From Eledone cirrhosa (taxonomy: Eukaryota): DNA of 64,000 nucleotides. Where the stretch lies: the NCBI GenBank assembly GCA_964016885.1, contig OZ024741.1, positions 139,624,001-139,688,000 on the forward strand, read 5' to 3'. This document shows positions 1-56,442 of this stretch, one piece after another. The position numbers and the translations under genes are program-made. The notes under the pieces were generated by a model. That model saw nothing but the letters and a program-made list of their open reading frames with translations, made no database searches and was not told where the DNA came from. Position 1 is the stretch's first letter. The number at the start of each line of letters is the position of its first letter.

Positions 1-1779
1 TATCGAAAGCTTTCGACTGATCTAAATTGATCAAGGACCCACCCGTGCCAGGTTCCTTAGCTACCCTCTCTATGATGTATCGCATGAGGTGGAGGTTGTC
101 GTAGATGGATCTGTCGGGAATGGCGCATGTCTGCGCCTCTCCCACCAGACCACCAACGACAAGCGCTAACCTCTTTGCTAGCACCTTGGCCAAAATCTTG
201 AACTCTGTGTTTAGCAGAGTTATGGGCCGGAAATTGTCTATGTTATCCCCCTTGTTCGGATCCTTTCTCAGCAGTGCCACCGCTCCTCGGCTCACAGAAC
301 TGGGAATTCTCCCGTTCTGTTGCCAGTTGCAGTAGACGTCCGCCAAGAGGCCTCCGAATAAGTCTGGCATCTGTACGTAAAGTTCATAGGGCAGACCATC
401 CAAACCAGGCGATTTACCCCTTGTGCAGCCTGTCATTGCCTCCCTTACTCCAGCGGCTGTTATCGGCTTTTCGCAACACTTCGCCTCAGTGGCCGAGAGC
501 CGCGGCAGTCCGTCGAGGTAGACACTAAAGTCCATCCCTCGATCCGGCCCGCCACTGCCCCCGAACAGTTGAGCGAAGTGTCGCTGAAAAGCTTCACACA
601 TTTGCCCGGGATCGAGGAGCATGCGCCCGTCGTGGTCCACCAAAGACCGGATCGTGGCTTTGTTGCCACGACGCGCCTCCGCCACTCGGGCCCATTGAAC
701 GGCTTTCGTCCCCTCGTGTCTGAGAGCACGCACCCTAGCTCTGACAACGCAGCCTTCGTGCTTTGCATTGACGAATTGGTCAAGGGCCAATTTCGCCGCA
801 AGCACGTCGGTCGCAATGCCTTTGCTAAGCCCTCGTCTAATTTTCTCACTAGTTCTCCCTCTGCTCTATTTTTCTCTATTGCTAAAGCCTTACTAAACCT
901 AATCGATTCTATTCTAATCGCTCTTTTCAGAGCAAACCACCACTTGTTGTTGACGATGGCCCCCGTCAACGCCCGCTTAACTAGTTCGCTAATCCGGTCT
1001 CTGTAGGCCTTGCACGCTGGTAAGGACGCGTTTAGCTTCCAGTAGCCGGGTCCTCGTCTATGAAGCCTATCTAAGTCAAGCACACAGGTCACGAATTTGT
1101 GGTCCGTGTAGCTGACTATCTTGAATTGTGGACAGCCTATGCTAGACCTATCTATTTCCCTACAAAATACTCTATCTAGATATGATCTGGATGACCCTAT
1201 GCGGTTTGTCCAAGTCCACATTGGCACATTCGGGAAATCCAATCGGTACCTGTCAGACAGTTCAAAACGCCTGAGCAGGTTGGTGAGGCTCTTGCACCCT
1301 CCACCCCTATCCGCTAATCCCACACAGTCCCAGCGTGCATCTAAGATCCCGTTCCAGTCGCCCACTAACACTAAAGAGCGGGACGTTCCAAGAAAGGTCT
1401 CCAGACGCCGGAAGAAATCAGGCCGCCCTGCTCCTGTCGGGGCATAGACGGCCACTAGCCTGAAAGCTTGCCAGTCTCCGCTGGTCACGTCCAGCACCAC
1501 CAGCTTACCCTCTGGGTCCAGGAAGATGGCCCGTATGGCGAGATCCAAACCTCTCCGAAAAAGCACAGCAACTCCTCCACCGGATCCAGGACGGCTGGGA
1601 GATGCGTACACATCGTAGCCGCCGAAGATCGGTGCGAAGGCCCGTGCTTCGGAGATTCTGGTCTCGTTGATGGCCACTACATCTATGTTTAGTGACCTGA
1701 GGTCGTTGAGCATGTGACCCTGCTTCCATGACGACCCCAAGCCACGCGCATTTATGCTGCCTATTCTGAGTGAGGTCAT
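1..1779 (-). pseudogene. Tx1 ORF2 (APE endonuclease + start of RT), frameshifted
   Basis: APE motifs SINARGL, NETRI, VYAPT, GDWN, SYLDRVF, TDHKFV, GPGYWKLN. The frame is lost near 830 and near 400, and RT motifs continue to position 1. Confidence 0.9.
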
Positions 1780-1814
1780 GTTTAAAATAGAGTGGAAAAG
1801 ATGGGAAAGACCAC

Positions 1815-3908
1815 TTACCGTACTTTTGGTAGAGGAGGGATGGTTTTTATATCCCTTTTCACTTGATCGTCTGGTGAAGGGACCGTTGAATCGTCCCTTC
1901 GGCTGGTCGTCGGCTCTTCTAAGAGAATGTCTGAGTATACTCTTCGATTGATGGTTCCTCCTAGGTCCCTGAAATCACCAACTGCGTTGGGGAATTTCGT
2001 TTTAATGTTTGTGTATTGTTTCTGTGCTATTTTTAGCAGTCTTATGTTAGTTGGCGTTTTGATTGGTGCTGGTATTATGTAGTCCTGTTGTGAAATGTCT
2101 GTGTGTTCAATTATGTAAGTCATTAGTTTCTTGTTGTTTGTATTTATTGCCGTGCATTTGTTTTTCTGGGGGTGGGGTGTGGTTCTGCTATTTTCTTGTC
2201 GTTGTTGCTGGGTGTGTGTGTTTTGTTGTTGTGTTTGCGATGTTGGTGCTTGTGGTGGTGGTGTTGAAGGTGTTGTTGGCGGTGGGGTTGTCGCCGGTGG
2301 TGATGGTGGTGCTAGTGTGGGTGGTGATGGTGTTGGTGTTGTTGCTGCTGTGGGTCTCTTTGCAGTAGACTTTACCCTTTTCTCATTTCTTTCCTCCCTT
2401 TTCAAAGGCGACGATGCGCTGCTTCTGCGTTTGTGCCTTCTTGCGACCTTTTGCCATCCCTCTCCCACCTCACACTCCATGTCTGATTCTGTGAGGTCGG
2501 GGAGGGGTACCAGCTCCACTCTTTCACTTGTTGTTGTTGGTGATGTTTGCACTGGAGTCTCTGTTGCAGCTGCATTTGGTATTGCTGTTGTTGTTGTTAA
2601 TATTTCCACTGCTGCTACTGTTTTTGATTTCCGTGGAGTGGGTATGGGTGCCACGGGCCTATCGTTCCTGGTTGCCGCTTGTCCTGTTGCTGGTAGCCGT
2701 GGAGCCGGATTCGGAAGGAGGGGGGTTTTCTCCTTTCTCAGGGTCTTCTCGTTGCAGAAGGCCCTGAGGTGAGTCTTCGATCCACAGCGAAAGCATTTCG
2801 GGCGTTTGCCCTCAACACTTATGGGCAGTTGAGTGCCGTTATCGAAGTCTATCACATCCGGGATAGCTTCGATGCACTCCTGGTTGGTTTGGATTAGCAT
2901 CTCAATGGAGGAGCCGACCCAATCTTCTCTTACTTTTTTCTGTACTTGCAGTACAGTTGTTTTGTCCTCGATTCCGACGAGGACAGACGCGGCCAGCCAA
3001 GAAGGGGTCATTCCGGGGGGGACGTGGGTCAGTTTGACCCTCACAATTTTTTGCCCGCAGTAGGAGGGCACCAACACCATTTCCTCGCTCCTTAGGGTCA
3101 CTACTGATTGGGACTTTGCCTCCTGGGGTGTGGCAAAAAGTACGTCTACGGTGGCATATTTTTTGCCTCGGGTGATGTGCGTTTTCCGCTGCCACACAGA
3201 CCCCAAGGCTTTTTGTATTTGAGCCTCTGTGGCTCTTTCCACCCTACGGGATTTTGTACTTACTGTATGGTACGTGACCGTACAGTGCTCTTGGGTTTCG
3301 AAAAATTTTTCCGCTGCCTTGCAGATTGCTCGGTGTCCGTTCTTTGTCACCATCTTCTTCGCTTCCTCTAATTCCTCATTTGTTATGAGGATTGTTTCCA
3401 AGTTTTTCGCAATACCTGCAAATGAGATTGGTTTTTCTCTGCTGTTGTTGTCGTCAGAGCTGCTGGTACTTTTGTTGTTGCTGCAGGTACTACGACTACT
3501 GCCTCCGCCGCTGTTGCTGTGGTTGTTGTTGGTGTTGCTGCTGCTAATGCTGTTGTTGTTTATGCTGCTGGTGATGCTGTTGCGGCTGCTACTGTTGTTT
3601 TCATTGTCACTGTTGCTGTTGTTATTACGGCTGCTACTGCTATTATTCCTGACGTCAGACGAATGAACTGGGTTTTCGTATTTCCCGCACACCTGTTTCG
3701 TCGCTGTCGTCGTCGTCGTGGAGAAACCTTGCACGCTTTGCACGAGACTTTTCTTTTCTTTCGTCACTTGCGAAAGAGAAGGGAGGGAGAGAGACACATT
3801 TAAAGAAGGGAGGGAGAGAGACAATCTTCTCTCTGCTGTAGTGATGATTGAGGAAGAAGAAGACGGAATGAGTGGGAGTGACGTATGAAATTTCTTTTTC
3901 GTAGCCAT
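1815..3908 (-). CDS. Tx1 ORF1 (gag-like nucleic-acid-binding protein)
   Basis: Open frame from ATG 3908 (MATKKK). Ser/Asn-rich N-terminus, one zinc knuckle CFRCGSKTHLRAFC, Pro/Thr-rich C-terminus. Ends 35 nt before the ORF2 ATG. Confidence 0.88.
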   Translation of the reverse strand: MATKKKFHTSLPLIPSSSSSIITTAERRLSLSLPSLNVSLSLPSLSQVTKEKKSLVQSVQGFSTTTTTATKQVCGKYENPVHSSDVRNNSSSSRNNNSNSDNENNSSSRNSITSSINNNSISSSNTNNNHSNSGGGSSRSTCSNNKSTSSSDDNNSREKPISFAGIAKNLETILITNEELEEAKKMVTKNGHRAICKAAEKFFETQEHCTVTYHTVSTKSRRVERATEAQIQKALGSVWQRKTHITRGKKYATVDVLFATPQEAKSQSVVTLRSEEMVLVPSYCGQKIVRVKLTHVPPGMTPSWLAASVLVGIEDKTTVLQVQKKVREDWVGSSIEMLIQTNQECIEAIPDVIDFDNGTQLPISVEGKRPKCFRCGSKTHLRAFCNEKTLRKEKTPLLPNPAPRLPATGQAATRNDRPVAPIPTPRKSKTVAAVEILTTTTAIPNAAATETPVQTSPTTTSERVELVPLPDLTESDMECEVGEGWQKVARRHKRRSSASSPLKREERNEKRVKSTAKRPTAATTPTPSPPTLAPPSPPATTPPPTTPSTPPPQAPTSQTQQQNTHTQQQRQENSRTTPHPQKNKCTAINTNNKKLMTYIIEHTDISQQDYIIPAPIKTPTNIRLLKIAQKQYTNIKTKFPNAVGDFRDLGGTINRRVYSDILLEEPTTSRRDDSTVPSPDDQVKRDIKTIPPLPKVR

Positions 3909-4142
3909 GTTGTTTTTTTGTTTAAAATGAAATTTTGGGTACAAAACCCCAATAACTGGTTATTTAACCCCGAAGGGCCAAATAACGGACAGAAAGACCC
4001 CTCTCACGAGGAGGAGGGTGTCTTTATCAACAATTTGGTTCAAGTTTTAAACAATTTACAATTGTTTTAACGGTTAAAAATTACTATACCTTACAGAGCC
4101 GAGCCTCCGTCAACCATGGCATTCAATAATAATAATAATAAT

Positions 4143-7100
4143 GATTTCTTTATTAACCACAAGGGTTTACATAAGGTAGACATTAAGGACAGTGCAGGAC
4201 AATACAGGACGGTGCAAATGGGCATTTCTGCGTGTAAAAAACAAAAACAGAGGATGTAACAAAAAAATAACAATGAAAAATTCGCCAATAGGGGGAGACT
4301 TCGGAGGGACATTTGTGGAGAAAGCCCAGTAAAAGGCCACAGTGACCCTGACCACCAAGGCAAGTGCCCTCTCCCAGTTTTCCACCTTTAATTTACAGAT
4401 ATATACTCACTCGGGTCATTCTTGCTTTTCTCACCCATCTTTCAACAAAATGTTGGGAAGAGAGCACTTCCCTCTCTACTCTGATTTTCCTTTTCAAATG
4501 AAATTTGAAAAAGTCAATCAGAGCATCACCGAAGCGGTAAGTGCTCGTCTTCAGCCCTTTCAAACGTGTCCACCATACTATCTCATTCGCCATGGTCACC
4601 AGATAGATAAAAACTGCCTGCCCTTCCCGGCTAAAGGAGAGGGCGGGGCAATCCTCACGATGGACTCAGATGATAGCCGGATCCGTCCTACACGCGACAG
4701 CAGGTGTTCGACATAAACCCACAAGTCAGCAATTTTCGGACACTGGACGAGTGCGTGCAGGACGGTTTCGTCGCCCTGCGCGCATCTCGGAAATACCCGG
4801 CTGATGGCACCTCCATGCCTGTAGAGTTTATCCCGAACTGGCAAGGCTCCTCGGTAGCACTGCCAGGCCAGAGATTTCTGGAAGTTGTCCATAAGCCCTG
4901 GCTCGAAAGTTCTTCCGAAGAGATTGGCTAGTTGATTTTCGTCGACGCCTAGAGTTTCCCCAAGTTCGTCGTCGCTCTTCCATTCACTAATCCTCTATAG
5001 ACCGCCGAGGTGGAGTTTCCACCGATCACATTGCCCGATTGGTCGAGGGCTGTGAGCGCCTGAAGACATTCCAGTCTCCAGGCGCTCCCTCTCGGTCTTC
5101 GCTTGACCCAGGACTGCCGCTCCGTCAAGGAAACGAGCTGGGGAAATACGTGTCTAGCAAACGGCGACCACACCTGATCACCGACAGAGGAAGAGGTGGA
5201 GATGCCGTAGCCTGAGCGCGTGCCTGCGCATCATCAACCACGGCATGCCCAGCCCTCCACGTAGCGGGTGTTGACAGCAGATGGACCGCTTGACCATCGG
5301 AGCGCGTCCCTTCCACAAAAAGCCAAAAAGCAAACGCTCCAGCGCAGTCAGGCGAGGCTTAGGACAAGGTACGATGGTCAGGCGGTAGCAGATGACAGAC
5401 GCGATGTACGCGTTAGCCCCCTCCGCTCGACCTTTCAGGGATAGCCTCCTCTCCACCCATTTCTGGGTGAGAGAAGCCACCCTGCTCGTCACCTCGTCCC
5501 AGTTTTTGTCCGTCTGGAGGTCCGGACCGAACCAGACCCCTAGCAATTTAACCGGTCCGTCTGTCCAGCGTCCGACGACGCTGTTGGACGGCATGGACCT
5601 GCCTTTCCAGGTGCCGAACTGCAGGCCCACTGACTTTTCCTGGTTGATCATTGCTCCTGTCACCGCTTCGTATTCTCTTAGTGTAGTGCCGATCGCCTCG
5701 ATGTGTTTGTCGTTCGATACCACTACGGTGACATCGTCCGCATATGCTGACACGGATCTTCCGCATCCTAGTTCGCGCGGGACGCCCCTCAACGTCTCAA
5801 GTTCGTGCAGTAATGGCTCGAGAGTCAATACGTACAACAGGGACGAGATGGGACATCCTTGGCGGACCGAGCGCATGATGTTGAACGGTTCCGAAAGGTG
5901 ACCGTTCACTCTCACCGCAGCGATCCAGCCTCTGAAGACGGGCCCAAAGCCAGCCGCCCTCAGGACTGCCGCTAGGTAACGATGGTCGACCCTATCGAAG
6001 GCTTTCGATTGATCTAAATTGATCAAAGACCCACCCTTGCCAGGTTCCCTAGCTACCCTCTCTACGATGTATCGCATGAGGTGGAGGTTGTCGTGGATGG
6101 ATCTGTCGGGAATGGCGCATGTCTGCGCCTCTCCCACCAGACCACCATGGACAAGCGCCAACCTCTTTTCTAGCACCTTGGCCAAACTCTTGAACTCGGT
6201 GTTTAGCAGAGTTGTGGGCCTGAAATTATCTATGTTATCCCCCTTGTTCGGATCCTTTCTCAGAAGTGCTACCGCTCCTCGGCTCACAGAACTGGGAATT
6301 TTCCCGTTCTGTTGCCAGTTGCAGTAGACGTCCGCCAAGAGGCCTCCAAACAAGTCTGGCATCTGTACATAAAGTTCATAGGGCAGACATCCAAACCAGG
6401 CGATTTACCCCTTGTGCAGCCAGTCATTGCCTCCCTTACTTCAGCGGCTGTTATCGGCTTTTCGCAACACTCCGCCTCAGTGGCCAAGAGCCGCGGCAGT
6501 CCGTCGAGGTAGACACTAAAGTCCATCCCTCGACCCGCCCCACCGCTTCCCCCGAAAAGCTGAGTGAAGTGCGCTGAAAAGCTTCACACATTTGCCCGGG
6601 ATCAAGTAGCATGCGCCCGTCGTGGTCCACCAAAGACCGGATCGTGGCTTTGTTGCCACGACGCGCACCGCCACTCGGGCCCATTGAACGGCTTTCGTTA
6701 CCTCGTGTCCTAGCTCTGACAACGCACCCTAGCTCTGACAACGCAGCCTTCGTGCTTTGCATAGAAGAATTGGTCAAGGGCCAATTTCGCCGCAAGCACG
6801 TCGGTCGCAATGCCTTTGCTAAGCGCCTTGTCTAATTTTCTAACTAGTTCTCCCCCTACTCTATTTTTCTCTATTGCTAAAGCCTTACTAAACCTAATGG
6901 ATTCTATTCTAATCGCTCTTTTCAGAGAAAACCACCACGTGTTGTTGACGATGGCCCCCGTCAACGCCTGCTTAACTAGTTCGCTAATCCGGTCTCTGTA
7001 GACCTTGCGCGCTGTTAAGGACGCGTTTAGCTTCCAGTAGCCGGGTCCTCGTCTATGAAGCCTATCTAAGTCAAGCACACAGATCACGAATTTGTGGTCC

Positions 7101-7690
7101 GTGTAGCTGACTATCCTTAATTGTGGACAGCCTATGCTAGACCTATCTATTTCCCTACAAAATAAATACTCTATCTAGATATGATCTGGATGACCCTATG
7201 CGGTTTGTCCAAGTCCACATTGGCACATTCGGGAAATCCAATCGGTAACTGTCAGACAGTTCAAAACGCCGGAGCAGGTTGGTGAGGCTCTTGCACCCTC
7301 CTCCCCTATCCGCTAATCCCACACTGTCTCAACTTGCATCTAAGATCCCGTCCCAGTCGCCCAACACTAAAGAGCGGGACGTTCCAAGAAAGGTCTCCAG
7401 ACGCGCCGGAAGAAATCAGGCCGCCCTGCTCCTGTCAGGGTATAGACGGCCACTAGCCTGAAAGGTTGCCCGTCTCTACTGGTAACGACCCGCACCACCA
7501 ACTTACCTTCTGGGTCCAGGAAGATGGCCTGTATGGCGAGATCCAAGCCTCTCCGAAAATGCACAGCAACTCATCCCCTCGATCCAGGACGGCTGGGAGA
7601 TGCGTACACATCGTAGCCGCCGAAGAATCGGTGCGAAGTCCTGTGCCACGGAGATTCTGGTCTCGCTGATGGCCACCACATCTATGTTTC
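4143..7690 (-). mobile_element. Tx1 copy 2, 5'-truncated and degraded ORF2 with 3' UTR and (ATT)n tail
   Basis: Near-identical to copy 1 over APE/RT. RT motifs RQGCP and YADD in 5178-6362. C-terminal zinc-finger remnant (PRCAQGDETVLHALVQC). 3' end CCTTGTGGTTAATAAAGAAATC(ATT)n. Confidence 0.92.
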
Positions 7691-7691
7691 A

Positions 7692-7830
7692 GAAATTACC
7701 CTCCGATACTTCCTGAATATCCGAGTCTACGGGTAGCAACTTGTTATTTAATAGTTAAATTATTCCGGTTGAATAACGTCAATGACTGAGACATCAAGTA
7801 AAAAAATAACAGAAAAACAACAATAATAAT
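7692..7830 (+). mobile_element. R4/Dong family A 3' tip
   Basis: Diverged match to the family A end (CCCTCCGATAC..CTGAATATC..AATGACTGAGA), followed by an (AAY)n tail. Confidence 0.75.
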
Positions 7831-8075
7831 GATGATTTCTTATTTAGTTACAAAAGGGTTTACAAAAATTACCTTAAGGACAGCACAGGCGGGTACAGGA
7901 CGGTACAAATATGGGTCTGCATGTAAAAAATGAAAGGAAAGGTATACAAAAGATGTAACAAAAAAAAGTAAACAAAGGGAAATCCCTAATAGGGAGATGA
8001 CCACAACTGTGTGTTACTCGAGCAGAAAACCAACAAAAGCTACTGTCACCCAGAACGCTAAGTTGTCCTCCCACA
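7831..8075 (-). mobile_element. Tx1 3' UTR fragment
   Basis: Similar to 4143-4385. Tail-to-tail with the Dong tip across a shared AAT tract. Confidence 0.75.
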
Positions 8076-8129
8076 ATACTACATGCACGTGCACAGCGCA
8101 GCGTCATTCTCACGGGCCATTCTTTACTG

Positions 8130-9172
8130 TCACACCCACTTGTCAATAAATTTGATAAACGTGATGTTGATAGACTCTACTTAAAGAGATAATATCAGCA
8201 TAGAGGACTGGGTTCAGATGGAGAAAACCAACCTGTACGAATATGTGGCTGACAGTAGGGAGCCAATGGTCAAAATTGTACTGAAGGAGAAGACAATAGA
8301 CCAGCGGAGGAGGAGCAACTTTCATGAAAATCGCTTCATAGCACCTTCTTTAAGAAAACAGAATTTAGAGATCCACAGACATTGAACTGGTTGAAAAGAG
8401 GAGACCTTAAAAAAGCTACAGAATTAATGCTAATGGCTGCGCAAGAGCAGGCTCTCAAAACGAAGTGGGTGAAACACTATATTGACAAGGAAGAGGCTAG
8501 CTCACTGTGTAGGATCTGAGGAGAGAGAGCGAAGATTGTGGCTCACATTGTATCCGAGTGTAAACACCTAGCCCAGCCTCACCATAAAGGCTGAAGACAT
8601 GATGTGATAGGCAGGGTGATCCACTGCCATCTATGCAAAGTAAACAATTTACCACATTCTGAAAAGTAGTATGAGCATAAGCCAGATTCGTTGTTAGAAA
8701 AGGATCAGGTGAAGGTACTATGGGATTTTATGATACAGACGGACAAGATATTAGAACACAATAGGCCTGACCTGGTGGTTTCGGACAAGGAAAAAAGTAC
8801 ATGCCTGATTGTAGATGTAGCCTGCCCATTTGACACGAGAGTGCAAGAAAAGGAGAGGGAGAAGATTAAACGATACCAGGACTTAAAGTGGTAGTTAAAA
8901 AGGATTTGGGACTGTCATGAAATCAAGGTCGTCCCGATTGTCATAGGGCCACTAGGTAATATCTCAAAGAGTTTCCAAGGATGGTTAAAGAAGATTAGAC
9001 CAGCCACGCTTTTTGGAACACTTCAAAAGGCATGCTTGCTGGGAACAGCAAGAATGCTCAGATACGTCCTGAATATCTGAGGCTGCAGGTAACGGCTTGA
9101 TATTCATTTAAACAAACTTTCCAGTTAAATAACATCAGTGACTGAGAATCAAAGAACAATAATAATAATAAT
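8130..9172 (+). mobile_element. R4/Dong family A 3' fragment (CCHC + RLE remnant)
   Basis: KVLWDF..HNRPDLVV..IVDVACPFD..RYQDLKW restriction-like endonuclease motifs with stops. (AAT)n tail. Confidence 0.9.
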
Positions 9173-11322
9173 GATGATTGCTTTATTAACCACAAGGGTT
9201 GACACAAAGTATAACATTAAGCATAACACAGGAAATACAAATGGGTATTTCTGCGTCTAATAAAAAACAAAAAGACAGAGTGTGACAAAAGTAAACAATA
9301 AATAATTCCCAATAGGAGGGAGACCTCTGAGGGCTGCTCGTGGAGAAAGCCCACAAGAAAAGCCACGGTTACCCTAACCGCTAGGGCAAATGCCCTCTTC
9401 CAGTTTTCCTCCTACAATGCTACAGGCACATACTCAAGATAGACCCATTCACACCGGCCTTTCTTGCCTCTCTCACCCACCTTTCAACAAACTGACGAGG
9501 GCGTCACCGAAGAGAAAAGTACCAGTATTCAAGCCTTTCAGACGAGTCCACCATACGATCTCTTTTACCATGGCCACCGGGCAGTTTTTATCTACTAAAG
9601 TAAGACGGCGGGGCAATCTTCACGATGGACTCAGCTGGTAGCCGGATGCTTTCTACACGTGACAGCAGAAGTTCGGCATAAACCCACAAGTCAGAAATGC
9701 TCGGACACTGGACGAGTGCGTGCCATACGGTTTCGTCGCCCTGCCCGCATCTCGGATATGCCCGGCTTACGGCACCTCAATTCCTGTAGAGTTTATCCCG
9801 AACTGGCAAGGGTCCTCGGTAGCACTGCAAGGCCAGGGATTTCTGTAAGTTGTCCATGGGCCCCGGTCCGAAAGTTCTCCCGAAGTAATTGGCTAGTTTG
9901 GTGTTTGTCGACGCCTAGAGTCTTCCCAAGGACGTTGTTGCTCTTTCATTCCACTAATCCTCTATAGAAAACCAAGGTAGAGTTTCCAGCGATTGTATTG
10001 CTCGACTGCTCGAGGGCTCTAAGCGCCTGAAGACATTCTAGTCTCCAAGCGCTAACCCCCGGTCTTCGGTTGAGCCAGGTCTGCAGCTCCACCAAGGAGA
10101 AAGCCGGGGAAACGTGTGTCTAGCAAAGGGCTACCACACCTGATCACCGTCGAGGAAGAGGTGGAGATGCCGTAGCCTGAGTGCATGTCTGCGCAACATT
10201 AACCACGGCATCCCCAGCCCTCTGCGTAGCGGGTGTTGACAGCAGATGGACCGCCTGACCAACGGAGCACGTCCCTTCCATAAAAGGTGAAAGAGCTATA
10301 ACGCCAGTGGAGTTAGGCGAGGCTTAGGACAAGTCCCGACGGTCAGGCGGTAGTAGATGATGGACGCGATGTACGCATTCGCCACCTCCGCTCGACCTTT
10401 CAGGGATAGCTTCCTCTCGGCCCATTTCTGGGTGAGAGAAAACACCTTGCTCGCGACCTCCTCCTAGTTTTTGTCCGTCTGGCAGTCCGGCGAACCAGAC
10501 CCCTAGCCATTTAACTGGTCCGTCCGTCGAGCGCCCCACGACACTGTCATGGACCTGCCTCGCCAGGTGCCGAGTTCCAAGCCTACTCATTTTTGCTGGT
10601 TGATCATTGCTCCTGTCACTACCTCGTATTATCTTAGTGTGGTACCGATTGCGTAGATGTGTTTGGCATTCGACACCACTACGGTGATGTCGTCTGCATA
10701 AGCTGACACTGTTCTTCCGAATCCTAGTTCACATGGGATCCCCCTCAATGTCTCCAGTTTTTGCAGTAATGACTGAAGAGTCAATACTTACAACAAGGAT
10801 CAGAGAGGACATACCTGGCGGATCGATCGCATGATGTTGAACGTTTCCGAAAGGCGACCGTTCACTCTCACCACAGAGCAGATATCGCTGTGCATGGCAG
10901 CAATCCAGCCTCTGAAGACAGGCCCAAAGCCAGTTGCTCTTAGGACTGCTGCCAGATAACGATGCTTTTGACTGATCTAAATTGATCAAAGACCCACCCA
11001 TGCCAGGTTTCCTAGCTACCCTCTCTACGATATATCGCATGAAGTGAAAGTTGTCGTGGATGGATCTGTCTGGAATGGCGCATGTCTGCGCCTCTCCCAC
11101 CAGACCATCAACGATAAGCGCCAACCTATTTGCTTGCACCTTAGTCAAAATCTCGAAGTCTATTTTATCCCCCTTTCTCGGATCCTTGCTCAGCAACGCC
11201 ACATACCCTCAGGTCACAAAGCTGGGAATTCTCCCGTTCTGCTGCCAGTTGCAGTAGACGCCGGCCAAGCGGTCTTCGAACAAGTCTGGCATATGTATGT
11301 AAAATTCGTAGGGCAGACCATC
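9173..11322 (-). mobile_element. Tx1 copy, 5'-truncated and degraded (RT to 3' UTR)
   Basis: Homologous to 4143-6390 (EAQTCAIPDRSIHDN, LINLDQSKA), with the same 3' end. Tail-to-tail with Dong at 9158-9178. Confidence 0.9.
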
Positions 11323-11323
11323 C

Positions 11324-14300
11324 AATAATAAAAAAAAACAAAAGAAAATCCCGTGACCAAGAAATACCTGGATGGCGGCCGGTGGGGAATAACCGTGTCT
11401 CTAGGGGAGGACGAACTCTCTAGGCTTGGTTGACACTTGTCCTAGGAGTCGTAACAGGAAATGAATACCTCTTGGCGGGTAAGGCTAAAACGCAACAAAA
11501 TAAAGCCAATGTCAAATGATAAAATCTCAAACCGCATGGGCCATCACCCGGGTCAAAAAGGGCCACGTCTCTCAGAGAGGAACCAGACTTGGGTCGAAAA
11601 ATCAGCTAATGGTTCAAACTACCCATCAATTCGGAGCTGGAGACCACACATGACCGGAATACTCCTACTGTTGGCCCCCCATGTTCACCACCAAGAAATC
11701 CAAAGAAAAAGAGAGAAAATTGGCCAAGGGAAGACAATAAAGAAATGTTTGGGGCGTTCTACACTACCATGTACTACCCATCAAATAGATCGAATACAGA
11801 ATAGACATATATCAACTGGAAAAATAAATATCCCGAAAACAGAGGCTATATTGAGAGTAACAAACTAGCTAATATACGAAGAAATATTGTTAAGAAAAAG
11901 TTACTAACTGATATAGAAATTGATCAGTAAAAGCAATTAGCACAAATTCAGCAAATGAAAAATAAATTGTAACATTTCGAATCCCAGGGTTGGGACGGAA
12001 TCACTGAGAGCAAAATAATTAAGGAAAGGATCGAAAAAGTGGAAGGAGTGCATACTCAAGATGAAACTCAAAATGAAAACAATGAGCTCGTAAATGATAA
12101 TGAAATGAATGAGAATGAACTCGCCAACTTGAAGAATGAAATTATGATCGAATGGATGAAAATGAAAGAATCTGACTTGGGGGAACGAGACACTCTCCCT
12201 AAGATCCGGAACTCCAAACAGAACCAAAGGATAATATACAAGACTAACATAATTCTCAAAAACATTATCATCACAAACAAACTAAACATTACTGATCTAA
12301 ATCATCTCTATTATGCATCGGCCAAAGTCACAACTCACTTATGTGGAGTGAAAATTAAAAAAAAACAGAGGAATTCCCAGAAGTAACCTACTTGGCATGA
12401 GAACATCAATCGCCAAATAAAACCTTCTCCGATCTGACATATAAATGTTCACAAAGAACAAAGTAGGTGAACACGTTAAACAAACTAAACTTAGAAAATT
12501 GAAAAGAAAATACAATATAAAATCAACAAACAACATAGACATGCTGATAGAAACAATCAAGCAAAAAGTGTCGGCCAAAGTTGCTAGTATAAGTCGCTTT
12601 GAAAACGATCTAGATTCTATAAGGACAATAATATGTTCAAAAACAACCAAAAAAACTTTTGGAAGTCAACAATAACTGCTAAATCAATACCACCCGAGGA
12701 GGAAGTGTAAGAATTCTGGGAAAAGGTCTGGGCCGAAGAAAAAGGTCATAATATACATGTCCCATGAATAGACAGACAAAGGAAAGATACAGCTGACCTT
12801 GAGGAACACACATGGGAAAATATAACAGTTGAACAGATGCGTTTAGCTCTTAGAAAATCCGGATGGAAATCACCAAGGAAAGACAAAATACAAACTTTTT
12901 GGACAAATGCCTTCACAGAGTCTCATGAGCTGTTAGCCCAACTTTACAATGAAATAGTTAAGGAGCTAGAAAAGATACCATCATGGCTAGTTAACGGCAT
13001 TACATCCCTACTTCCCAAGAACGATGAGACAAACAATCCCAAAAATGACAGACTGATAACTTGCTTGACAAAAATGTATCAAATTTTAACATCAGTCCTA
13101 AATGAATATACATATGACCACCCGATAACAAATGACCTATTTACCAATGAGCAGAGAGGATGTAAACGAGGCTCATATGACTGTAAATGATCAGCTTTTG
13201 GTTAACAAAATGATACTGGAAGATTGTCATAATAGACACAAAAATCTATCAATTGCTAGGATAGATTACAAAAAAGCATTCGATAGTTTGCCACACAGTT
13301 GTATTGAAAGGTGGTTAGAAATTTTCAAAATATCTCCCGTTGTCAGGAGGTTCTTGTCATTCAGTATGAAGACATGGAAAACGACACTCCTTTTGAATAG
13401 TGAGAAAAATCACTGGAAGCTGGTGAAGTTAATATTAATTGTGGAATTTTTCAGGGTGACTCTTTATCACCGCTTTTATTCTGCATCTCACATATACAAT
13501 TAAGTAAAATGCTCAGTGGATATAAAGTCTATGACAAAACCATTAATTACGTGTTCTACATGCATGACCTGAAACTATTTGCAAAGAATGATGAGCAATT
13601 GCAAGGGCTACTATCCACTGTGAAGCAGTTCAGTGATTATATTAAAATGGAGTTTGGGCTAGATAAATTCCCCAAAGTCACGTTCACCAGACGAAAACTA
13701 CTGAGAAGTTCAGACATTAATCTTGATCGGGGGAATGTGATAAGAGAAATTGATCAAGAGGGAACTTACACATATCTAGGTATTTGTGAAGGAGACGGAA
13801 TCAAGTACTCAACAATGAGGGAAAGGATAAGGAAGGAATGTTACCGCAGAGAAAGAGCAATCTTAAGAACGGAACTGAATGCAAAGAATAGGATCGATGC
13901 CATAAACACGCTTGCCATACCAATAGTAACCTACAGTTTCAATTTCATCAACTGGTTAAAGACAGAGAGCCGTAGGCTCGATACAAAAATTAGAAAATTC
14001 TTAACCATGCAGAGAATGCATGTCAAATGTGTAAGCATTTTGACCTGCCCCATCAAAAGAATTGGTGGGACCATCAACCACCTCCCATACTTTAAAAAGA
14101 TTACGTTTCAATCTTGTGGAACTTTAGCATCCAAACAGACCGAAAAATAGATGCAAATAGACCTGATATAATACTGAAGGACTTTAAAAAGAGGGTATGC
14201 CTGCTAATTGAAATGTCCGTTCCAATAGACAAGAATGTATATATAAAAACATTTGAAAAATTGAACAAAAGTAAAAGGACCTGGAGATAGAAATTGGAAA

Positions 14301-14640
14301 AATGTGGAAATTGAGAACTAAAACAATACCAGTGGTTGTAGGCGCTCAATGAATGATACCTAAGGGGTCTAATGATTACTTATCGCAAATTCCAGGAAAC
14401 CCGCATACAGGAGAAATACAAAAGATAGTACTAATGGGAACTGCCAATATACTAAGGAAGATTCTGTCAATATAGGTACATCACAAGTCTAAACACCTAA
14501 AGATGCATGTGTGTATATGTATGTTCTTTCTTGAACATGAAGGACCTTGTTGTCTCTTGAGTTCACTGGTTGTGACTTGGTGATAACTCATATGAACATA
14601 AAGCAAGATAAATGCAACTATAATTATAATAATAATAATA
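11324..14640 (+). mobile_element. R4/Dong family B, near full-length but heavily degraded
   Basis: RT motifs ([32 protein letters not shown]) and an RLE remnant (RPDIIL.D). The 3' UTR differs from family A. AAT tracts at both ends. Confidence 0.85.
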
Positions 14641-15168
14641 CCAATAGTAACCCACAGTTACAATGTCATCAACTGGTCAAGCACAGAGTTACGTATGCTC
14701 GATACAAAAATTAGAAAATTCTTAACCATTCAGAGAATGCATCACCCTAAGGCAGATACAGATAGAATATATCTCTCTACGAAAGAAGGAGGACGTGCAT
14801 TCATCCAGTTAGATATTGCGTTGAAAACTGCAACAATTGGATTAGCTACATATCTAAGGGAATCACATGATTAGATCATCAAACTCGTTTTGAAGCACAA
14901 AACATCAAATGATAATACTACATTACAAAAGATGCACAAAGATAAAGTAATGGCTTAAACATTTCAGAAGTCCCATTTACTGCTGAAATGGAAAACACAG
15001 AAAAGGCAAAGCAGGTAAAAGTAACTGCAAAGAAAGAACTGCTACAGAAACTGGCTAAGAAATGGCAACAAAAGCCTCTGTATGGAAAATACCCAGAAAG
15101 AGACGACGATCCTAATTGTGACAAAATATTAACCCATCAGTGGTTGGCATCCTCTGGACTGAAATCGG
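14641..15168 (+). mobile_element. R4/Dong family B internal fragment
   Basis: Repeats 13920-14020, then continues HPKAD.DRIYL..EGGR and WQQKPLYGKYP..WLASSGLKSE. Confidence 0.8.
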
Positions 15169-17692
15169 AGAATTGCATAGAACTGTTATGCAATGTTACC
15201 TGAAGAGTAACACCAGGGAAAAAGGCTATAGGAAACGGATGCATAATATCTGGGATGAGATTGGTCTATTTAAATTAGATGAACAAAAATTGGCCGGGCA
15301 GGCCCGGGTAATAAACACTGATGGATGAATAAGCGAGTGGAGTATGCCGGGAAAACGAGTCAGTGGGAAATGAAGATGAAGAGGTTGAGAGACCGGAGAA
15401 AGCATCCGAAGCAGACAATGATCTGAATGCTGACATAGATAATATCTGGAACAAGGATGTGGCCATTGAGGAAATGAATGCTGACGGGCTAGGACAAGAT
15501 TTGGTTGATATCCTAAACTTAGTGGTAGATGAAAAGAACAATGATAGTGGGAAACCTATGAACCTAAGATTTGTAGACAGGAAAATGTTTGATGTCGGGT
15601 GAGGTACCAGAGTGGTTGACAAAGGGTACCACAGTCCTGGTAATGAAAGACCGAATCAAGCGTAATGATGTTACCAAATATATACCTATCACATGCCTAT
15701 CCGTAATGTTGAAACTGTTAACAAGCATTGTGTCTGAGGAATCTACCATCACCTCCACACAAACAACTTGTTACCGAACGAACAGAAAGAATGCCGAAAG
15801 AAGTCCCGTGGTACAAAAGACCAGTTACTTATTGATAAGATGGTAATGAGGAATTGCAAGAGGAGACTCCGTGATCTTGCCATGGGATGGATAGACTACA
15901 AAAAGGCATTCGACATGGTATCTCATTCTTGGAAAACCAAAAGCCTAGAGATCTTCAAGGTGGCAGATAACATCAGACAGTTGTTGAGCAAAAGTATGAA
16001 GTCCTGGAAAACAGAGTTAACATGGGGTGGAGAATCCATGGGAAGCGTGAAGATCAAGAAAGGTATCTTCCAGGAAGATAGTCTGTCCCCTCTGTCGTTT
16101 GTCCTTGTCCTGATGCACCTGACCATTATACTGCGAAAAGTGAGAGCAGGATACAAGTTGGGAAATGGAGAGCTTACCATCAGTCACATCCTCTTCATGG
16201 ACGATCTTAAGCTCTTCGGTAAGTGTGAGAAAGAGTCCGATGTGCTTGTTGACACTGTCCGTATTTTCAGCAATGGTCTATGTATGTAATTTGGTATTAA
16301 TAAGTGTGGAGTTCTAGTGATGAAGAGGGGTAAATTGAGCAGAGGCAACGGAATCCAGGTACAAAAAGGTGAGATGATAAAGGAAATTGACACTTAGGAA
16401 GGATACAAATATTTAGGTGTTATTGACGCTGATGACATCAAGAATAAAACAATGAAGGAATTGATGAGATCTGAATACATTCCGAGAGTAAGGAGCGTAT
16501 TTAAATTACATCTGAACAGTAGGAATATCATAAGTGCATTAAATTCCCGAGCTGTGTCTATTATTAGGTACAGTGCTGGAATTCTGAGATGGAATTTTGC
16601 TGAACAAAGAGAAATGGATATGAAGACTAGGAAGCTATTGACTATCTACAACATGTTCCACAAGAAGAGTGATGTCGATAGACGCTACTTAAGGAGTTCT
16701 GAAGGGGAAGAGGTCTTATCTGCATAGAGGACTGTGTTGAGATGGAGAAAAACAACCTACACAAATACGTGACTGATAGTAGGGAGCCAATGCTCAGAAT
16801 TGTACTGAGGGAGAGCACAATAGACCAGGGGATGTCCAGGGAGGGAATAACAACAAGGAGAAACGGCAACCTTCATGAAAATCCCTTCATAGTACCTTCT
16901 TTGAGAAAACTGAATATAGAGATCCACAGATATGGAACTGGTTGAAAAGAGGAGACCTTAAAATGGTTACAGAAGGAATGCTAATGACTGTGCAAGAGCA
17001 GGCCCTCAAAACGAAGTGGGTGAAACACCATATTTACAAGGAGGAGGCTAGCCCACTGTGTACGATATGTGAAAAGAGAGAGGAGACTGTGGCTCACATT
17101 GTATCCGAGTGTAAACACCTAGCAGAGACTCACTATAAAGGCTGGAGACATGATGTGATGGGCAGGGTGATACACTGGCACCTATGCAAAGTAAACAATT
17201 TACCACATTCTGAGAAGTGGTATGAGCATAAGCCAGAGTCCGTAATAGAAAACAATCAGGTGAAGGTGCTGTGGGATTTTAGGATACAGACGGATAAGAA
17301 ACTGGAACACAAATTATAGTGCCTGATTGTGGATGTAGCCTGCCCATTTGACACGAGAGTGCAAGAGAAGAAAAGGCAGAAAATTAACAGATACCAGGAC
17401 TTAAAGTGGGAGGTAAAAAGGATTTGGAACTGCCATGAAGTCAAAGTGGTCCCGATCGTCATAGGCGCACTAGGTACTATCTCACAAAGTTTCCAATGGT
17501 TGTTAAAGAAAATTGGTTCCGCCCCGCTTTTGGGAACACTTAAAAAGGCACGCTTGCTGGGAACAGCAAGAACCCTCCGATACGTCCTGAATATCTGAGG
17601 CTGCAGGTAGTGGCTTGATATTCATTTCAACAAACTTTCCAGTTAAATAACATCAATGACTGAGACTCAAATAATAATAATAATAATAATAT
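15169..17692 (+). mobile_element. R4/Dong family A, internally deleted degraded copy
   Basis: Colinear with the 47.2-50.7 kb copy apart from a deletion near 15585. RT and RLE motifs, (AAT)n tail. Confidence 0.9.
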
Positions 17693-17925
17693 AAGAGAAA
17701 TACAATAAATAGAACTAATGGGAACTGCCCATATACTAAGGAAGATTCTGTCAATATAAGTGCATCACACGTCTAAACACCTAAATATGCATGCGTGTGT
17801 ATGTATGTTCTTTCTTGAATATGGCGGATCTTGTTGTCTCTTGAGGTCACTTGTTGCGGCTTGGGGATAACTCGTACGAACATAAAGCAAGATAAATGCA
17901 ACTGTAGTAATAATAATAATAATAA
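17693..17925 (+). mobile_element. R4/Dong family B 3' tip
   Basis: Near-duplicate of 14410-14640, with an (AAT)n tail. Confidence 0.85.
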
Positions 17926-17929
17926 AAAT

Positions 17930-18722
17930 AAAGAGACCTTAAAAATGCTACAGAAGGAATGCTAATGGCTGCGCAAGAGTAAACCCTCAGAACGAAGTGG
18001 GTGAAACACCATATTTACATGGAGGGGGCTAGCTCACTATGTAGGATCTGTGGAGAGAGTGAGGGGAGACTGTGGCTCACATTGTATCCGAATGTAAACA
18101 CCTAGCCCAGACTCACTATAAAGGCTGGAGACATGATGTGATAGGTAGGGTGAACCACTGGCATCTATGCAAAGTAAACAATTTACCACATTCTGAGAAG
18201 TGGTATGAGAATAACTAGAAAACGATCAGGTGAAGGTGCTATGGGATTTTAGGATACAGACGGACAAGAAATTAGAACACAATAGGCCTGACCTGGTGGT
18301 TCTGGACAAGGAAAAATGATCGTGCCTGATTGTAGATGTAGCCTGCCCATTTACACGAGAGTGCAAGAAAAGGAGAGGGAGAAAATTAACTGATACCAGG
18401 TCTTAAAGTGGGAGTTAAAAAGGATTTGGAACTGCCATGAAGTCAAGGTCGTCGCGATTGTCATAGTTGCATTAGGTACTATCTCAAAGAGTTTCCAATG
18501 ATGGTTAAAGAAGATTATTCCAGCCCCGCATTTTGCAACACTTCAAAAGGCATGCTTGCTGGGAACAGCAAGAACCCTCCGATACGTCTTGAATATCTGA
18601 GGCTGCAGGTAGCGGCTTGATATTCATTTCAACAAACTTTCCAGTTAAATAACCTCAATGACTGAGATACAAAGAACAATAATAATAATAAAGATAATAA
18701 TAATAATAATAATAAAAATAAA
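17930..18722 (+). mobile_element. R4/Dong family A 3' fragment
   Basis: Matches 16950-17690, with an (AAT)n tail. Confidence 0.88.
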
Positions 18723-46769: not shown

Positions 46770-47202
46770 CATCCCTCTCTTAACATGAAGTAGTGAGGGA
46801 ATAGTGATGGTAGCGATGATGCAGTGGTGGCGATGGTGATGGGATAGTAGTAATCTAGGGATGGTGTTGTTGTAGCTGTTGGTTTGTATCTAGCTAAATT
46901 TTCTGTGGTGGTGGTGGCGGCGGCGGTGGTGAATTGTTTGGCTGTTCTTTTCTTCCATTTGTGAACATTTGTAACCATTTTCTTTTCTGACTATAACATT
47001 TCTAAAACAAAATTAAGTATTAAATATTGTAGCCCTATACAATAATTTTATGCAATGTCACTTCCTGAGAGTCAGGACTGGTATCTTATGTTCCAATTGT
47101 AATAAGAATTATTCTATCACAATTGTTTTAAATATGTAAACAAATCCAAAACTTACGGGAGCGGTTCCATAACACTCTATCCACTATGTGCGTGTTCTTC
47201 CC
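46770..47202 (-). mobile_element. 5' fragment of a Tx1-related element (family X)
   Basis: Diverged homologue of about 51500-51950. Shares the 5' motif ..GCTCCCGTAAG.. and a Thr/Ala-rich ORF1-like start. Confidence 0.5.
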
Positions 47203-50200
47203 TTATTATTATTATTATTATTATTGTTATTGTTATTCCTTGAATCTCAGACATTGATGTTGGTTAACTGGAAAGTCCGTTGGATTGAATATCAAGCCAC
47301 TACCTGCAGCCTCAGATATTCAGGACGTATCGGAGGGTTCTTGCTGTTCCAAGCAAGCATGCCTTTTGAAGTGTTCCAAAAAGCGTGAAGGGGCCGATTT
47401 TCATTAACCATCCCTGGAAATCTTTGGAGATAGTCCCCAGTGCGCCTATGACAATCGGGATCACTTTGACTTCATGGCAGTTCCAAATCCTTTTCACCTC
47501 CCACTTTAGGTCCTGGTATCGGTTAATTTTCTCCCTCTCCTTCTCTTGCACTCTCGTGTCGAACGGGCAGGCCACATCCACAATCAGGCACGATCTTTTT
47601 TCTTTGTCCACAACCACCAGGTCAGGTCTATTGTGTTCCAGTTTTTTGTCCGTCTGTATCCTAAAATCCCACAGCACCTTCACCTGACTGTTCTCCATCA
47701 CCGCCTCTGGCCTATGCTCATACCATTTCTCAGAATGTGGTAGATTGTTTACTTTGCACAGGTGCCAGTGGATCACCCTGCCCATCACATCGTGTCTCCA
47801 GCCCTTATAGTGGGTCTGGGCTAGGTGTTTACACTCGGACACAATGTGAGCCACAGTCTCCTCTCTCTCTCCACAGATCCTGCGCAGTGGGCTAGCCTCC
47901 TCCCTGTAGATATGGTGCTTCAACCACTTCGTTTTGAGGGCCTGATCCTGCGCAGCCATTAGCATTCCTTCTGTAGCCTTTTTGAGGTCTCCTCTTCTCA
48001 ACCAGTTCCATGTCTGTGGATCTCTAAATTCAGTTTTCTCAAAGAAGGTACTATGAAGGGATTTTCCCTTAAGGCTGCTCTTCCTCCTTGATGTTATTTC
48101 CTCCTTGGATATCCCCTGGCCTACTGTCCCCTCCTTCAGTACAGCTCTGAGCATTGGCTCCTTACTATAGGTCACGTATTTGTATAGGTTGTTTTTCTCC
48201 ATCTGAACACAGTCCTCTATGCTGATAAGACCTCTTCCACCCTCAGATCTCCTTAGGTAGAGTCTATCGACATCACTCCTCTTGTGGAACATGTTGTAGA
48301 TAGTCAATAGCTTCCTAGTCTTCCTATCCATTTCTTTTTGTTCTTTATGCCATCAGCCTCCAGAACGCCCAAATACTTGTATCCTTCCTCAGAGTCAATT
48401 TCCTTTATCATCTCACCTGTTGGTATCTGGATCCCGTTACTTCTGCTCAACCTACCCCTCCTCATCACAATGACTCCACATTTACCAATACCAAACTGCA
48501 TACATATATCACTGCTGAAAATACGGACAGTGTCAACAAGCACATCCAACTCCTTCTCACTTTTCCCGAAGAGCTTAAGATCGTCCATGAAGAGGAGGTG
48601 ATTGATGGTAAGCTCTCCCCTTCCCAACTTGTATCCTGCTCTCACTTTTCGCAGCATAATGGTCAAGGGCATCAGGGCAAGGACAAACGACAGAGGGGAC
48701 AGGCTATCTCCCTGGAAGATACCTCTCTTGATCTTCACGCTTCCCAAGGATACTCCAGTTGATGTCAACTCTGTCTCCCAGGACCCCATACTCCTGCCCA
48801 GCAACTGTCTGATGTTATCTGCCACCCTGAAGATCTCCAGGCTTTTGGTGATCCAGGAATGAGGCACCATGTCAAATGCCTTTCTGTAGTCTATCCATCC
48901 CATGGCAAGATCAGTGTGTCTCCTCCTGCAATTCCCCATTACCATCTTATCAATAAGCAACTGGTCCTTTGTACCACGTGACTTCTTTCGGCATCCTTTC
49001 TGTTCGTCCGGCAACAAGTTGTTTGTGTGGAGGTGATGGTAGATTTCCTCAGACACAATGCTCGTCAACAGTTTCCACATTACGGGCAGACATGTGATAG
49101 GTCTATAGTTGGTAACATCATTACCCTTGATTCGGTCTTTCATTATCAGAACGGTGGTACCTTTTGTCAACCACTCTGGCACCTCACCCGACACCAAGCA
49201 GTCATTGAACATGGCCGTCAGCTTTGGGTGGAGGGATGTTAAATGTTTAATCCAATACCCCTGCACACCATCTGGGCCTGGTGATTTCCAGTTGGTTAGT
49301 TTTTTGGCTTGCCCCTTAAGAGTTTCAACTGTGATACTCAAATCAGTCTGTTGTTGTGCCTGCTCACCGATCTCCCTCTGTACTGTCTCAATCCACCCTG
49401 CCTGGGCATTGTGTCTAACATCCTGCTCCCATATTCCTCTCCAGAATGTTTTAGCTTGTTCCGCCCCAGGGATCAAGTCGTTGCCTCTTTCTTTCCCCTC
49501 AAGCTGTCCAAACAGCATCTTCTGGTTGTTGTCGAACATGCGGTTCTGTTTATACTGACTGACTCTGTTCTCGTATCGCCTGATTTTGGCACTCTTTGCT
49601 ACAATGCGTTGCTTCAATTCCTCTATGATAATATTTAGCTTTTTACTCCTAGTTTTGTATTTTATTTCCAGTCTATTTTTAGTGCCTATGTTTTTTAGTG
49701 TCCCATTCAGTAGTGACTCAAGCTTTCCTATGTCATTTCTCATTTCCCCGATTTGCCCACTCAGTCGCTTCTTCCACCACGGCTCTGCTCTTTCTTGTCT
49801 GTTGTTTCCTCTCGCTTTTATACCAAGTAGTTTCCTCACCGTATTTGCTGTTGCTTTGAGGATATTGTTGCACTGGTGAAGACTCCTCGCCTCAAGGTAT
49901 GGGATGACTTTGTTTACCTTAGCTGTTGTTTCTTTTAACTTTTTCCTGTCTACAAATCTTAGGTTCATAGGTCTCCCACTATCATTGTTCAACTCATCTA
50001 CCACTAAATTTAGGATGTCAACCGAATCTTGTCCTAGCCCGTCAGCATTCATCTCCTCAGTGGCCGTATCTCTGTTCCAGGTATTATTTATCTCAGTATT
50101 CAGATCATTGTCTGCTTCGGGTGGTTCCTCCGTTCTCAGGACCTCCTCACCTTCATTTCCCGCCGGCTCGCTTGTCTGGCATACTACACCCGCCATCTCC

Positions 50201-50720: not shown

Positions 50721-50729
50721 CCAAAAATG

Positions 50730-51949: not shown

Positions 51950-51950
<1 letters not shown>
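50730..51950 (-). mobile_element. 5' fragment of Tx1-related family X with a ~330-bp tandem duplication (51126-51459 / 51460-51785)
   Basis: 5' end GAAGACGCACGAGGTGACGGAGG..GCTCCCGTAAG..AATTTTTAAC resembles both Tx1 5' ends. Low-complexity ORF1-like remnants. The duplication is directly visible. Confidence 0.55.
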
Positions 51951-52027
<77 letters not shown>

Positions 52028-52028
<1 letters not shown>

Positions 52029-52594: not shown

Positions 52595-52639
<45 letters not shown>

Positions 52640-56125: not shown

Positions 56126-56142
56126 CGCAAATATATATATAA

Positions 56143-56261
<119 letters not shown>

Positions 56262-56262
56262 A

Positions 56263-56313
<51 letters not shown>

Positions 56314-56346
56314 CATATATATATATATACATATATATATATACAC

Positions 56347-56377
<31 letters not shown>

Positions 56378-56442
56378 TAAATGAAAGGTATAGAAAACAT
56401 TGTAGCAAAAAGCCAACATACATACATATATATATATATATA

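Follow-up and report, generated by a model that had tools for sequence, protein, structure and literature searches.

Tx1-like and Dong-like LINEs with opposite polarity in the (TAA)n microsatellites of Eledone cirrhosa

Introduction

Dong, a long interspersed element (LINE) of the R4 clade described as Bombyx Dong, DongAg, and DongBg, is specific for TAA microsatellites and carries a TAA tail (PMC3812793). Kibi, Koshi, and crocodilian families of the Tx1 clade, which encode an apurinic/apyrimidinic-type endonuclease (APE) and are described from vertebrates, are also microsatellite specific, with (TC)n, (TTC)n, and (TTCC)n/(TTTC)n as targets and tails made of the target unit (PMC4494074). Keno, an APE-type LINE of the Tx1 clade, and Utopia, a LINE with a restriction-like endonuclease (RLE), have parallel specificity for U2 snRNA genes (PMC4640811). 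Here, we analyze a 64,000-nucleotide stretch of the Eledone cirrhosa genome (assembly GCA_964016885.1, contig OZ024741.1, positions 139,624,001 to 139,688,000, forward strand; hereafter the window), in which Tx1-like APE LINEs and two families of RLE LINEs, here called Dong-like and D', are stacked in a single kind of microsatellite. Apart from rare exceptions in the counts below, the repeat reads (ATT)n on the sense strand of the Tx1 type and (TAA)n on that of the Dong type.

Like Dong, the RLE elements described here possess a reverse transcriptase (RT), a CCHC motif, and an RLE, are preceded by (TAA)n, and terminate in (AAT)n. They differ in that two families with 30 to 46% protein identity coexist and share their target with an APE lineage, and their placement with Dong is a putative one drawn from sequence. 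The Tx1-like element resembles Kibi and Koshi in being APE type and inserted in a microsatellite, but its target is (ATT)n rather than (TC)n or (TTC)n and its host is a cephalopod, so it is not a member of those families. As with Keno and Utopia, an APE lineage and an RLE lineage occupy one target. However, Keno and Utopia share the same gene site with identical 3' flanks, whereas the target here is a strand-symmetric repeat that is entered on opposite strands and recreated with each insertion. A common 3' tail is the general principle of LINE-SINE pairs (PMC3747384), where SINE stands for short interspersed element, and a SINE-like repeat in the window shares the 3' hairpin, spacing, and repeat tail of the Tx1-like LINE, although in this case the partnership is suggested by sequence and polarity alone.

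A recent repeat annotation of octopus lists active LINEs that include "Dong-R4", with 1129 recent insertions in 5 families, and "L1-Tx1", with 421 recent insertions in 13 families, and it is the abundant active RLE LINEs that carry the Dong-R4 label (PMC13282606). We found no paper on a Tx1-clade family in (ATT)n or on one paired with Dong; Fig. 3 or the supplement of PMC4494074, or Repbase, might list one. The (ATT)n target, known for Dong, thus appears to be new for the Tx1 type and would add a microsatellite target to that clade. A natural pair of APE and RLE elements on opposite strands of one simple duplex would also offer a clean system for studying target-strand choice by LINE endonucleases and RNA tails. 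The LINEs of this cephalopod-type genome are under study for their activity in the brain.

Results and discussion

Insertion polarity across the genome

Tx1-type and Dong-type LINEs very probably share (TAA)n/(TTA)n as a target for target-primed reverse transcription (TPRT), with each endonuclease nicking the opposite strand. A first-pass annotation of the window had proposed this convergence of an APE lineage on the Dong target from the other strand, and it had named the genomic flanks and strands of further copies as the place to check it. We therefore sampled the 3.0-Gb genome at 120 loci, taking the 30 best-scoring matches for each of four element ends (Tx1 5', Tx1 3', Dong 3', and Dong 5'). 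In this sample, the Tx1 5' flanks are ATT rich and orientation is non-random, and the flank and polarity counts given below support the proposal.

The Tx1 sense strand both starts after (ATT)n and ends in it, as claimed beforehand. ATT repeats stand immediately before its 5' end, GAATGCCATGG, in all 29 loci read (28 ending in ...ATT and one in ...GTT); the thirtieth locus lacks the exact 40-mer and was left unread. Five of these 5' loci belong to two arrays (L001-L003 and L022-L023), and one (L020) is the window's own copy. The 3' end, ...AATAAAGAAATC, is followed by ATT units in 29/30 loci (two units only in L070, a degenerate tract in L088). The 3' end of Dong, ...CTCAAAGAAC, likewise runs into AAT units in 29/30 loci (AATAA only in L051), in keeping with the (AAT)n ending first read from the window, and the Dong 5' end, AGGGAAGAAGACG, is preceded by AAT units in all 30, with variable phase and occasionally a few extra letters. 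When all 3' ends detected by blast in 90 loci are considered, ATT follows 58/60 Tx1 ends, and AAT follows 39/41 Dong ends and 3/3 D' ends.

Of the 90 loci, 31 contain both types, and in 29 of these the orientations are strictly opposite. Local rearrangement accounts for the other two, where every piece nonetheless fits its own tract: L040 has a polarity switch and a fused fragment, and in L043 (1846-2132) a Tx1 3' part runs one way with the adjoining upstream part reversed, as twin priming gives in L1. In another locus, L130, Tx1 and Dong point the same way, but each has its own tract; the two tracts are 185 bp apart and opposite in polarity. The neighbor across the tract is classifiable at 72 of the 120 sampled ends, the remaining 48 flanks being unique or unclassified, and 71/72 obey the polarity rule. 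Tx1 ends face 17 Tx1 elements in sense, 7 SINE-like repeats in sense, and 11 Dong or D' elements in antisense; Dong ends face 19 Dong or D' elements in sense, 8 Tx1 and 9 SINE-like elements in antisense, and 1 Dong in antisense. The sole exception among the 72 is L142, a rearranged copy.

Runs of (CTT)n/(GAA)n adjoin or replace the ATT/AAT tract at six loci (L075, L078, L016, L026, L042, and L156), and (CTT)n adjoins the tract in 4 of 60 Tx1 junctions (L016, L026, L075, and L078). At L075, a Dong 3' end faces a Tx1 3' end across (GAA)n. These runs recall the (TTC)n target of Koshi, and simple repeat mutation may also account for them.

A loosely specific, L1-like APE that cuts at T/A steps offers a different account, in which the association with the repeat arises mainly through pairing of an (AUU)n tail with nicked or broken AT-rich repeats rather than by cleavage of a specific sequence. 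Every (AAT)n unit has a T/A step, tail and target have the same sequence and can always pair, and the Tx1-like ORF2 (the second open reading frame [ORF]) aligns over 850 residues with human L1 ORF2p, endonuclease included; the Tx1 3' end that abuts (CTT)n at L075 also fits. However, pairing on the 3' side leaves unexplained that the 5' junction has one phase (ATT|G) in 28/29 loci, and in other Tx1-clade families the endonuclease is considered to direct targeting (PMC4494074). Moreover, (TA)n arrays are numerous between 18.7 and 46.9 kb of the window, and blastn and tblastn with the reference elements place neither Tx1 nor Dong pieces in any of them. Specificity therefore goes beyond AT-richness, and we consider a loosely specific APE unlikely.

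A mixed stack at 1-18722

Pfam searches of stop-to-stop ORFs, self-comparison, blastn comparison with four reference elements, and tblastn searches using the ORFs of these elements agree on the LINE layout of the window (Table 1). In positions 1-18722, blastn and tblastn bear out the earlier reading that four Tx1 pieces all lie on the minus strand and seven R4/Dong pieces all lie on the plus strand; the count of seven holds if 14641-17669 is taken as two pieces, which protein matches back. All eight junctions singled out by that annotation (4125, 7822, 9158, 11324, 14620, 17672, 17908, and 18678) are AAT-type tracts, the one at 11324 a mere AATAAT followed by an A-run. The 3' end lies on an AAT tract in 10 of the 11 pieces, the exception being the fragment at 14641-14904. 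Conversely, 10 of the 12 perfect ATT/AAT runs of at least 12 nt in the window are at LINE junctions, 1 follows a SINE-type 3' end, and 1 (32103) is free.

Table 1. LINE pieces and repeat tracts of the window, with the Tx1-like arrays found elsewhere in the genome
Feature	Position	Strand	Evidence or remarks
Tx1-like copy A1, 5' 4.1 kb of full-length 6030-bp copy	1..4124	-	98.9% to reference, positions 4128-1
(AAT)6 tract, A1 5' end / A2 3' end	4125..4142	.	
Tx1-like copy A2, 5'-truncated within APE	4143..7689	-	reference positions 2438-6030, 94%
Dong-like 3' terminal fragment, abutting truncated A2 5' end directly	7690..7821	+	self-comparison, blastn
(AAT)3 tract, tail-to-tail junction	7822..7830	.	
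3' fragment of divergent Tx1-type subfamily (71%)	7831..8160	-	self-comparison, blastn
Dong-like 3' 1 kb, CCHC and RLE region	8161..9157	+	blastn, tblastn
(AAT)5 tract, tail-to-tail junction	9158..9172	.	
Tx1-like copy A3, 5'-truncated in RT, older (75-83%)	9173..11325	-	blastn, tblastn
D' (second Dong-like family); RT and RLE 30-46% protein identity to first	11340..14619	+	Pfam, tblastn
ATA/AAT tract, tail of D'	14620..14640	.	
D'-like internal fragment without 3' end	14641..~14904	+	blastn, tblastn
Dong-like copy, internal deletion	~15155..17669	+	reference positions 1547-2014 and 2751-4711
(TAA)7 tail	17670..17691	.	
D' 3' terminal 216 bp	17692..17907	+	self-comparison, blastn
(TAA)8 tail	17908..17931	.	
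Dong-like 3' 745 bp	17933..18677	+	blastn, tblastn
(AAT)14 tail, right edge of stack; unrelated sequence beyond	18678..18721	.	
First 237 nt of Dong-like copy, 5' end only	46966..47202	-	self-comparison, blastn
(TTA)n on plus = (TAA)n tail of Dong copy to right	47203..47237	.	
Full-length Dong-like copy, 4713 bp	47238..51950	-	RT 48304-50577; CCHC and RLE 47312-48352
(TTA)25	51951..52027	.	
Dong-like 3' 567 bp	52028..52594	-	blastn, tblastn
(TAT)15 = (ATT)n on plus, directly 5' of plus-strand Tx1 copy	52595..52639	.	
Divergent Tx1-like copy	52640..56071	+	ORF1 32%, ORF2 57-67% identity to reference
Tx1-like arrays	G000:C28:122873603-122885948 (L001-L003); C2:43449687/43455772; C4:53827824/53833894		

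Copy A1 begins with GAATGCCATGG at 4124 and contains ORF1 (1815-3959), the APE (about 1070-1779), and an ORF2 that is frameshifted near 814-865. The stack extends 1.9 kb to the left of the window, where the remainder of A1 brings the copy to 6030 bp, with (AAT)8 at its end (L032 6111-8000). Still further left, beyond 1.4 kb of sequence without annotation, L032 1-4701 holds a stack of the opposite polarity, with Tx1 on plus, then (ATT)n, and an almost complete Dong on minus. Contigs of four sequencing runs over 3500-4800 break at the repeat, with the lowest cover at 4116-4159.

Such stacks might instead come mostly from a few founding insertions that were duplicated locally, inverted, or multiplied by unequal crossing-over, rather than from repeated retrotransposition into tails. 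Arrays of identical units with identical (ATT)6 spacers (L001-L003) would suit this explanation, as would the polarity switches and fused fragments in L040, L142, and L032. Yet the Tx1 pieces of the window differ in age (98.9, 94, 75 to 83, and 71% identity) and in truncation point, as expected of independent insertions; the window's pieces taken together all differ in family, age, and truncation point, and the neighbors across the tracts are different subfamilies in many loci. That the stacks arose mostly by duplication or rearrangement is accordingly highly improbable.

The mirror block at 46.9-56.1 kb

The mirror arrangement described in the first-pass annotation is real: polarity between 46.9 and 56.1 kb is inverted as claimed, with Dong on minus and Tx1 on plus, and the tracts at 47203, 51951, and 52595 are (TTA)n or (TAT)n when read on the plus strand. 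One caveat is that an (ATT)n tail is missing from the plus-strand Tx1 copy. The full-length Dong-like copy starts with AGGGAAGAAGACG directly after (TAA)n and has one frameshift between its RT and its CCHC/RLE region. Its 5' region includes a 333-bp tandem duplication (95.6%; 51126-51791). The Tx1 copy lacks the APE and the first part of the RT, and its 3' untranslated region is lost in (AT)n at 56131-56379.

Structure and classification of the elements

The Tx1-like element is 6030 bp long, starts with GAATGCC directly after ...ATT, and ends in ...AATAAAGAAATC(ATT)n. A full copy at L031 has both ORFs intact, ORF1 with 698 amino acids (one CCHC knuckle and no match to a Pfam family) and ORF2 with 1139, and in ORF2, separate from ORF1, Pfam identifies Exo_endo_phos (the APE), RVT_1 (the RT), and zf-RVT. 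The closest database proteins are unnamed or from Argonauta hians (69%). Outside cephalopods, the best named match is Xenopus Tx1 (YTX2), collinear with 329 bits in phmmer and 29% identity over 980 amino acids, and human L1 ORF2p scores 182 bits. This score pattern agrees with a putative placement in the Tx1 clade. Target-specific insertion, which is common though not strictly defining in that clade, is also found in the Tx1-like family.

The Dong-like element is 4.7 kb long, with RT, CCHC, and RLE in this order; it starts with AGGGAAG after (TAA)n and ends in ...CTCAAAGAAC(AAT)n. In the full-length copy of the window, the CCHC motif and RPDLVVVD...DVACPFD lie within 47312-48352, and Pfam finds no APE. 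The C-terminal part can be aligned to the nuclease of R2 across PD...D...K (E 0.0018), R2 is also the nearest solved structure to the RT, and L157 has RT and nuclease in one frame. Insertion into (TAA)n and a tail of the same repeat, as in Dong/R4, are seen at 29/30 3' ends and 30/30 5' ends. The element has many well-conserved relatives, 1753 in all, of which the best 120 show 53 to 68% identity; they bear no informative names. No named R4 or Dong sequence was found among the 1753, the names in the protein atlas being generic. At the DNA level, blastn detects no similarity between the Tx1 and Dong references at E 1e-5.

The domain order and, for the APE element, the best named relative thus fit the clade labels of the first-pass annotation, the Tx1 label being drawn from similarity scores. 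It could be that the APE element belongs to another L1-group lineage outside the Tx1 clade proper, which would turn the new Tx1 target into a labeling error; in line with this, identity to Xenopus Tx1 is just 29%. However, the element scores 329 bits to Xenopus Tx1 against 182 to human L1 ORF2p, and its named matches are of the YTX2 type. The 421 insertions of the 13 recently active "L1-Tx1" families in the octopus annotation (PMC13282606) are, furthermore, close in number to the 412 candidate 5' ends found here. We regard a labeling error as improbable.

The Tx1-like family is young, as seen in its identical 5' ends, one intact 6030-bp copy, and tandem arrays. At least 40 of the 412 candidate 5' ends are 100% identical over 250 nt, and full-length, 100%-identical copies form head-to-tail arrays with a spacing of 6048 to 6085 bp and identical short spacers (Table 1). 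The arrays could stem from repeated insertion or from tandem duplication. Relatives in metagenomes (34 loci) all show 24 to 48% identity in the best segment. None of the 11 that were read has an ATT tail, and one has poly(A), which is uninformative on the age of the target choice. Of the 31-letter words sampled from the young Tx1 copy (window 1-4400), at least half occur in eight sequencing runs under five coded organism labels. The family, or a very near one, is therefore not confined to one label. No RNA run is listed among the runs that share these words.

A SINE-like repeat with the Tx1 3' hairpin

A SINE-like repeat of about 215 bp is present in the window at 46103-46640, 27509-27693, and 41238-41506, as well as in L071, L077, and L087, and forms tandem dimers at 46235-46640. 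No tRNA or Rfam match was found for its head. Many copies resemble the Tx1 element at the 3' end, where 16 nt lie between a CUUGU hairpin and the (ATT)n tail. In the Tx1 subfamilies and in the SINE-like repeat, the hairpin before the tail consists of a CUUGU loop on a stem of 3 to 4 bp; Tx1 stems read AACC/GGTT or GGCC/GGCC, and SINE stems read (T)GGC/GCC(A). An alignment of 36 distinct sequences has 77.8% of cells paired, and its covariation is 0.427, compared with 0.196 in shuffles (reached by 0 of 500) and at most 0.209 in slid controls. The distance from loop to tail is 16 nt in 46/55 Tx1-type and 28/32 SINE-type ends. All 16 classified SINE neighbors have Tx1 polarity. These data support, short of proof, a candidate role of the Tx1 machinery in moving the SINE. 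ATT follows only 8 of the 18 SINE 3' ends that blast detected.

Proposed growth of the stacks

In a TPRT model, the APE would nick the (AAT)n strand, probably at the T/A step, and the (AUU)n RNA tail would pair there to prime synthesis. The RLE would nick the (TTA)n strand, which is the primer strand of Dong. The CUUGU hairpin, with its stem of 3 to 4 bp placed 16 nt before the tail, would be the recognition mark for the RT, and the SINE-like repeat with the same hairpin module may ride along on the Tx1 machinery. The single phase of the Tx1 5' junction (ATT|G, 28/29) suggests cuts at T/A steps on both strands, and the twin-priming-like inversion in L043 is one TPRT signature. Because the tail is a duplex repeat, each new tail would be a target for both kinds of element, so stacks would grow.

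Each insertion retains the repeat on both sides, and the pieces are of graded age and varied truncation. Reuse of tails in the same polarity is visible directly: young Tx1 5' ends with 100% identity follow tails that belong to older subfamilies (L005, L008, L012, L018, L021, and L024), and in 11/30 loci a young Dong 5' end follows a Dong or D' tail. The earlier proposal that tails serve as landing sites fits the 72 of 120 junctions that have a repeat-targeting neighbor, but the order of insertion between clades is something that we infer, and the order of arrival in tail-to-tail Tx1/Dong pairs is not readable from sequence.

Several observations weigh against this reading or narrow it. The Tx1 3' end at L075 is followed by (CTT)n, and both families flank (GAA)n/(CTT)n there; the head-to-head junctions 7689|7690 and 8160|8161 retain no repeat tract; and the plus-strand Tx1 copy at 52640-56071 is without an (ATT)n tail, its own tail being unseen because the copy runs into (AT)n at 56131. 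Some full-length neighbors may be tandem duplications, as L001-L003 share an identical (ATT)6 spacer, and neither of the two Dong copies fetched whole (L157 and L158) has an intact ORF. Since the loci are the best-scoring matches per query, the sampled copies are young, and old copies lie outside the sample. The hairpin alignment was preselected for CTTGT, and its compensatory changes come from about three lineages, so they represent few independent events and modest evidence. Finally, the strand assignment of both nick sites, and with it the choice of (AAT)n as the Tx1 primer strand and (TTA)n as the Dong primer strand, follows solely from the TPRT model that is assumed.

Sharing of the repeat by the two LINE types would explain how mixed LINE stacks of 20 kb, and a large share of the (TAA)n, arise in a cephalopod-type genome. 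More broadly and more tentatively, we propose as plausible that the APE LINE, its SINE-like passenger, and the two RLE LINE families make up a consortium that feeds itself on a single microsatellite. Two unrelated endonucleases would read the repeat on opposite strands, each insertion would renew the target for every member, the CUUGU hairpin with an (AUU)n tail would be the entry ticket on the Tx1 side, and most (TAA)n tracts of the genome would be products and substrates of the consortium.

Other features of the window

Three further features lie outside the LINE stacks. Inverted repeats at 56545-57407 and 60039-60896 (867 bp, 95.5% identical) enclose an ORF with an RT domain (58880-59851, plus strand); this element is possibly DIRS- or Penelope-like. 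An ORF fragment with a PIF1-like helicase domain (37700-38158, plus strand; E 2.8e-16) is probably a Helitron remnant. The inverted repeats at 62156-62370 and 63024-63238 are 95% identical, each with about four copies of a 34-bp tandem unit, and look like a foldback element or one resembling a miniature inverted-repeat transposable element (MITE).

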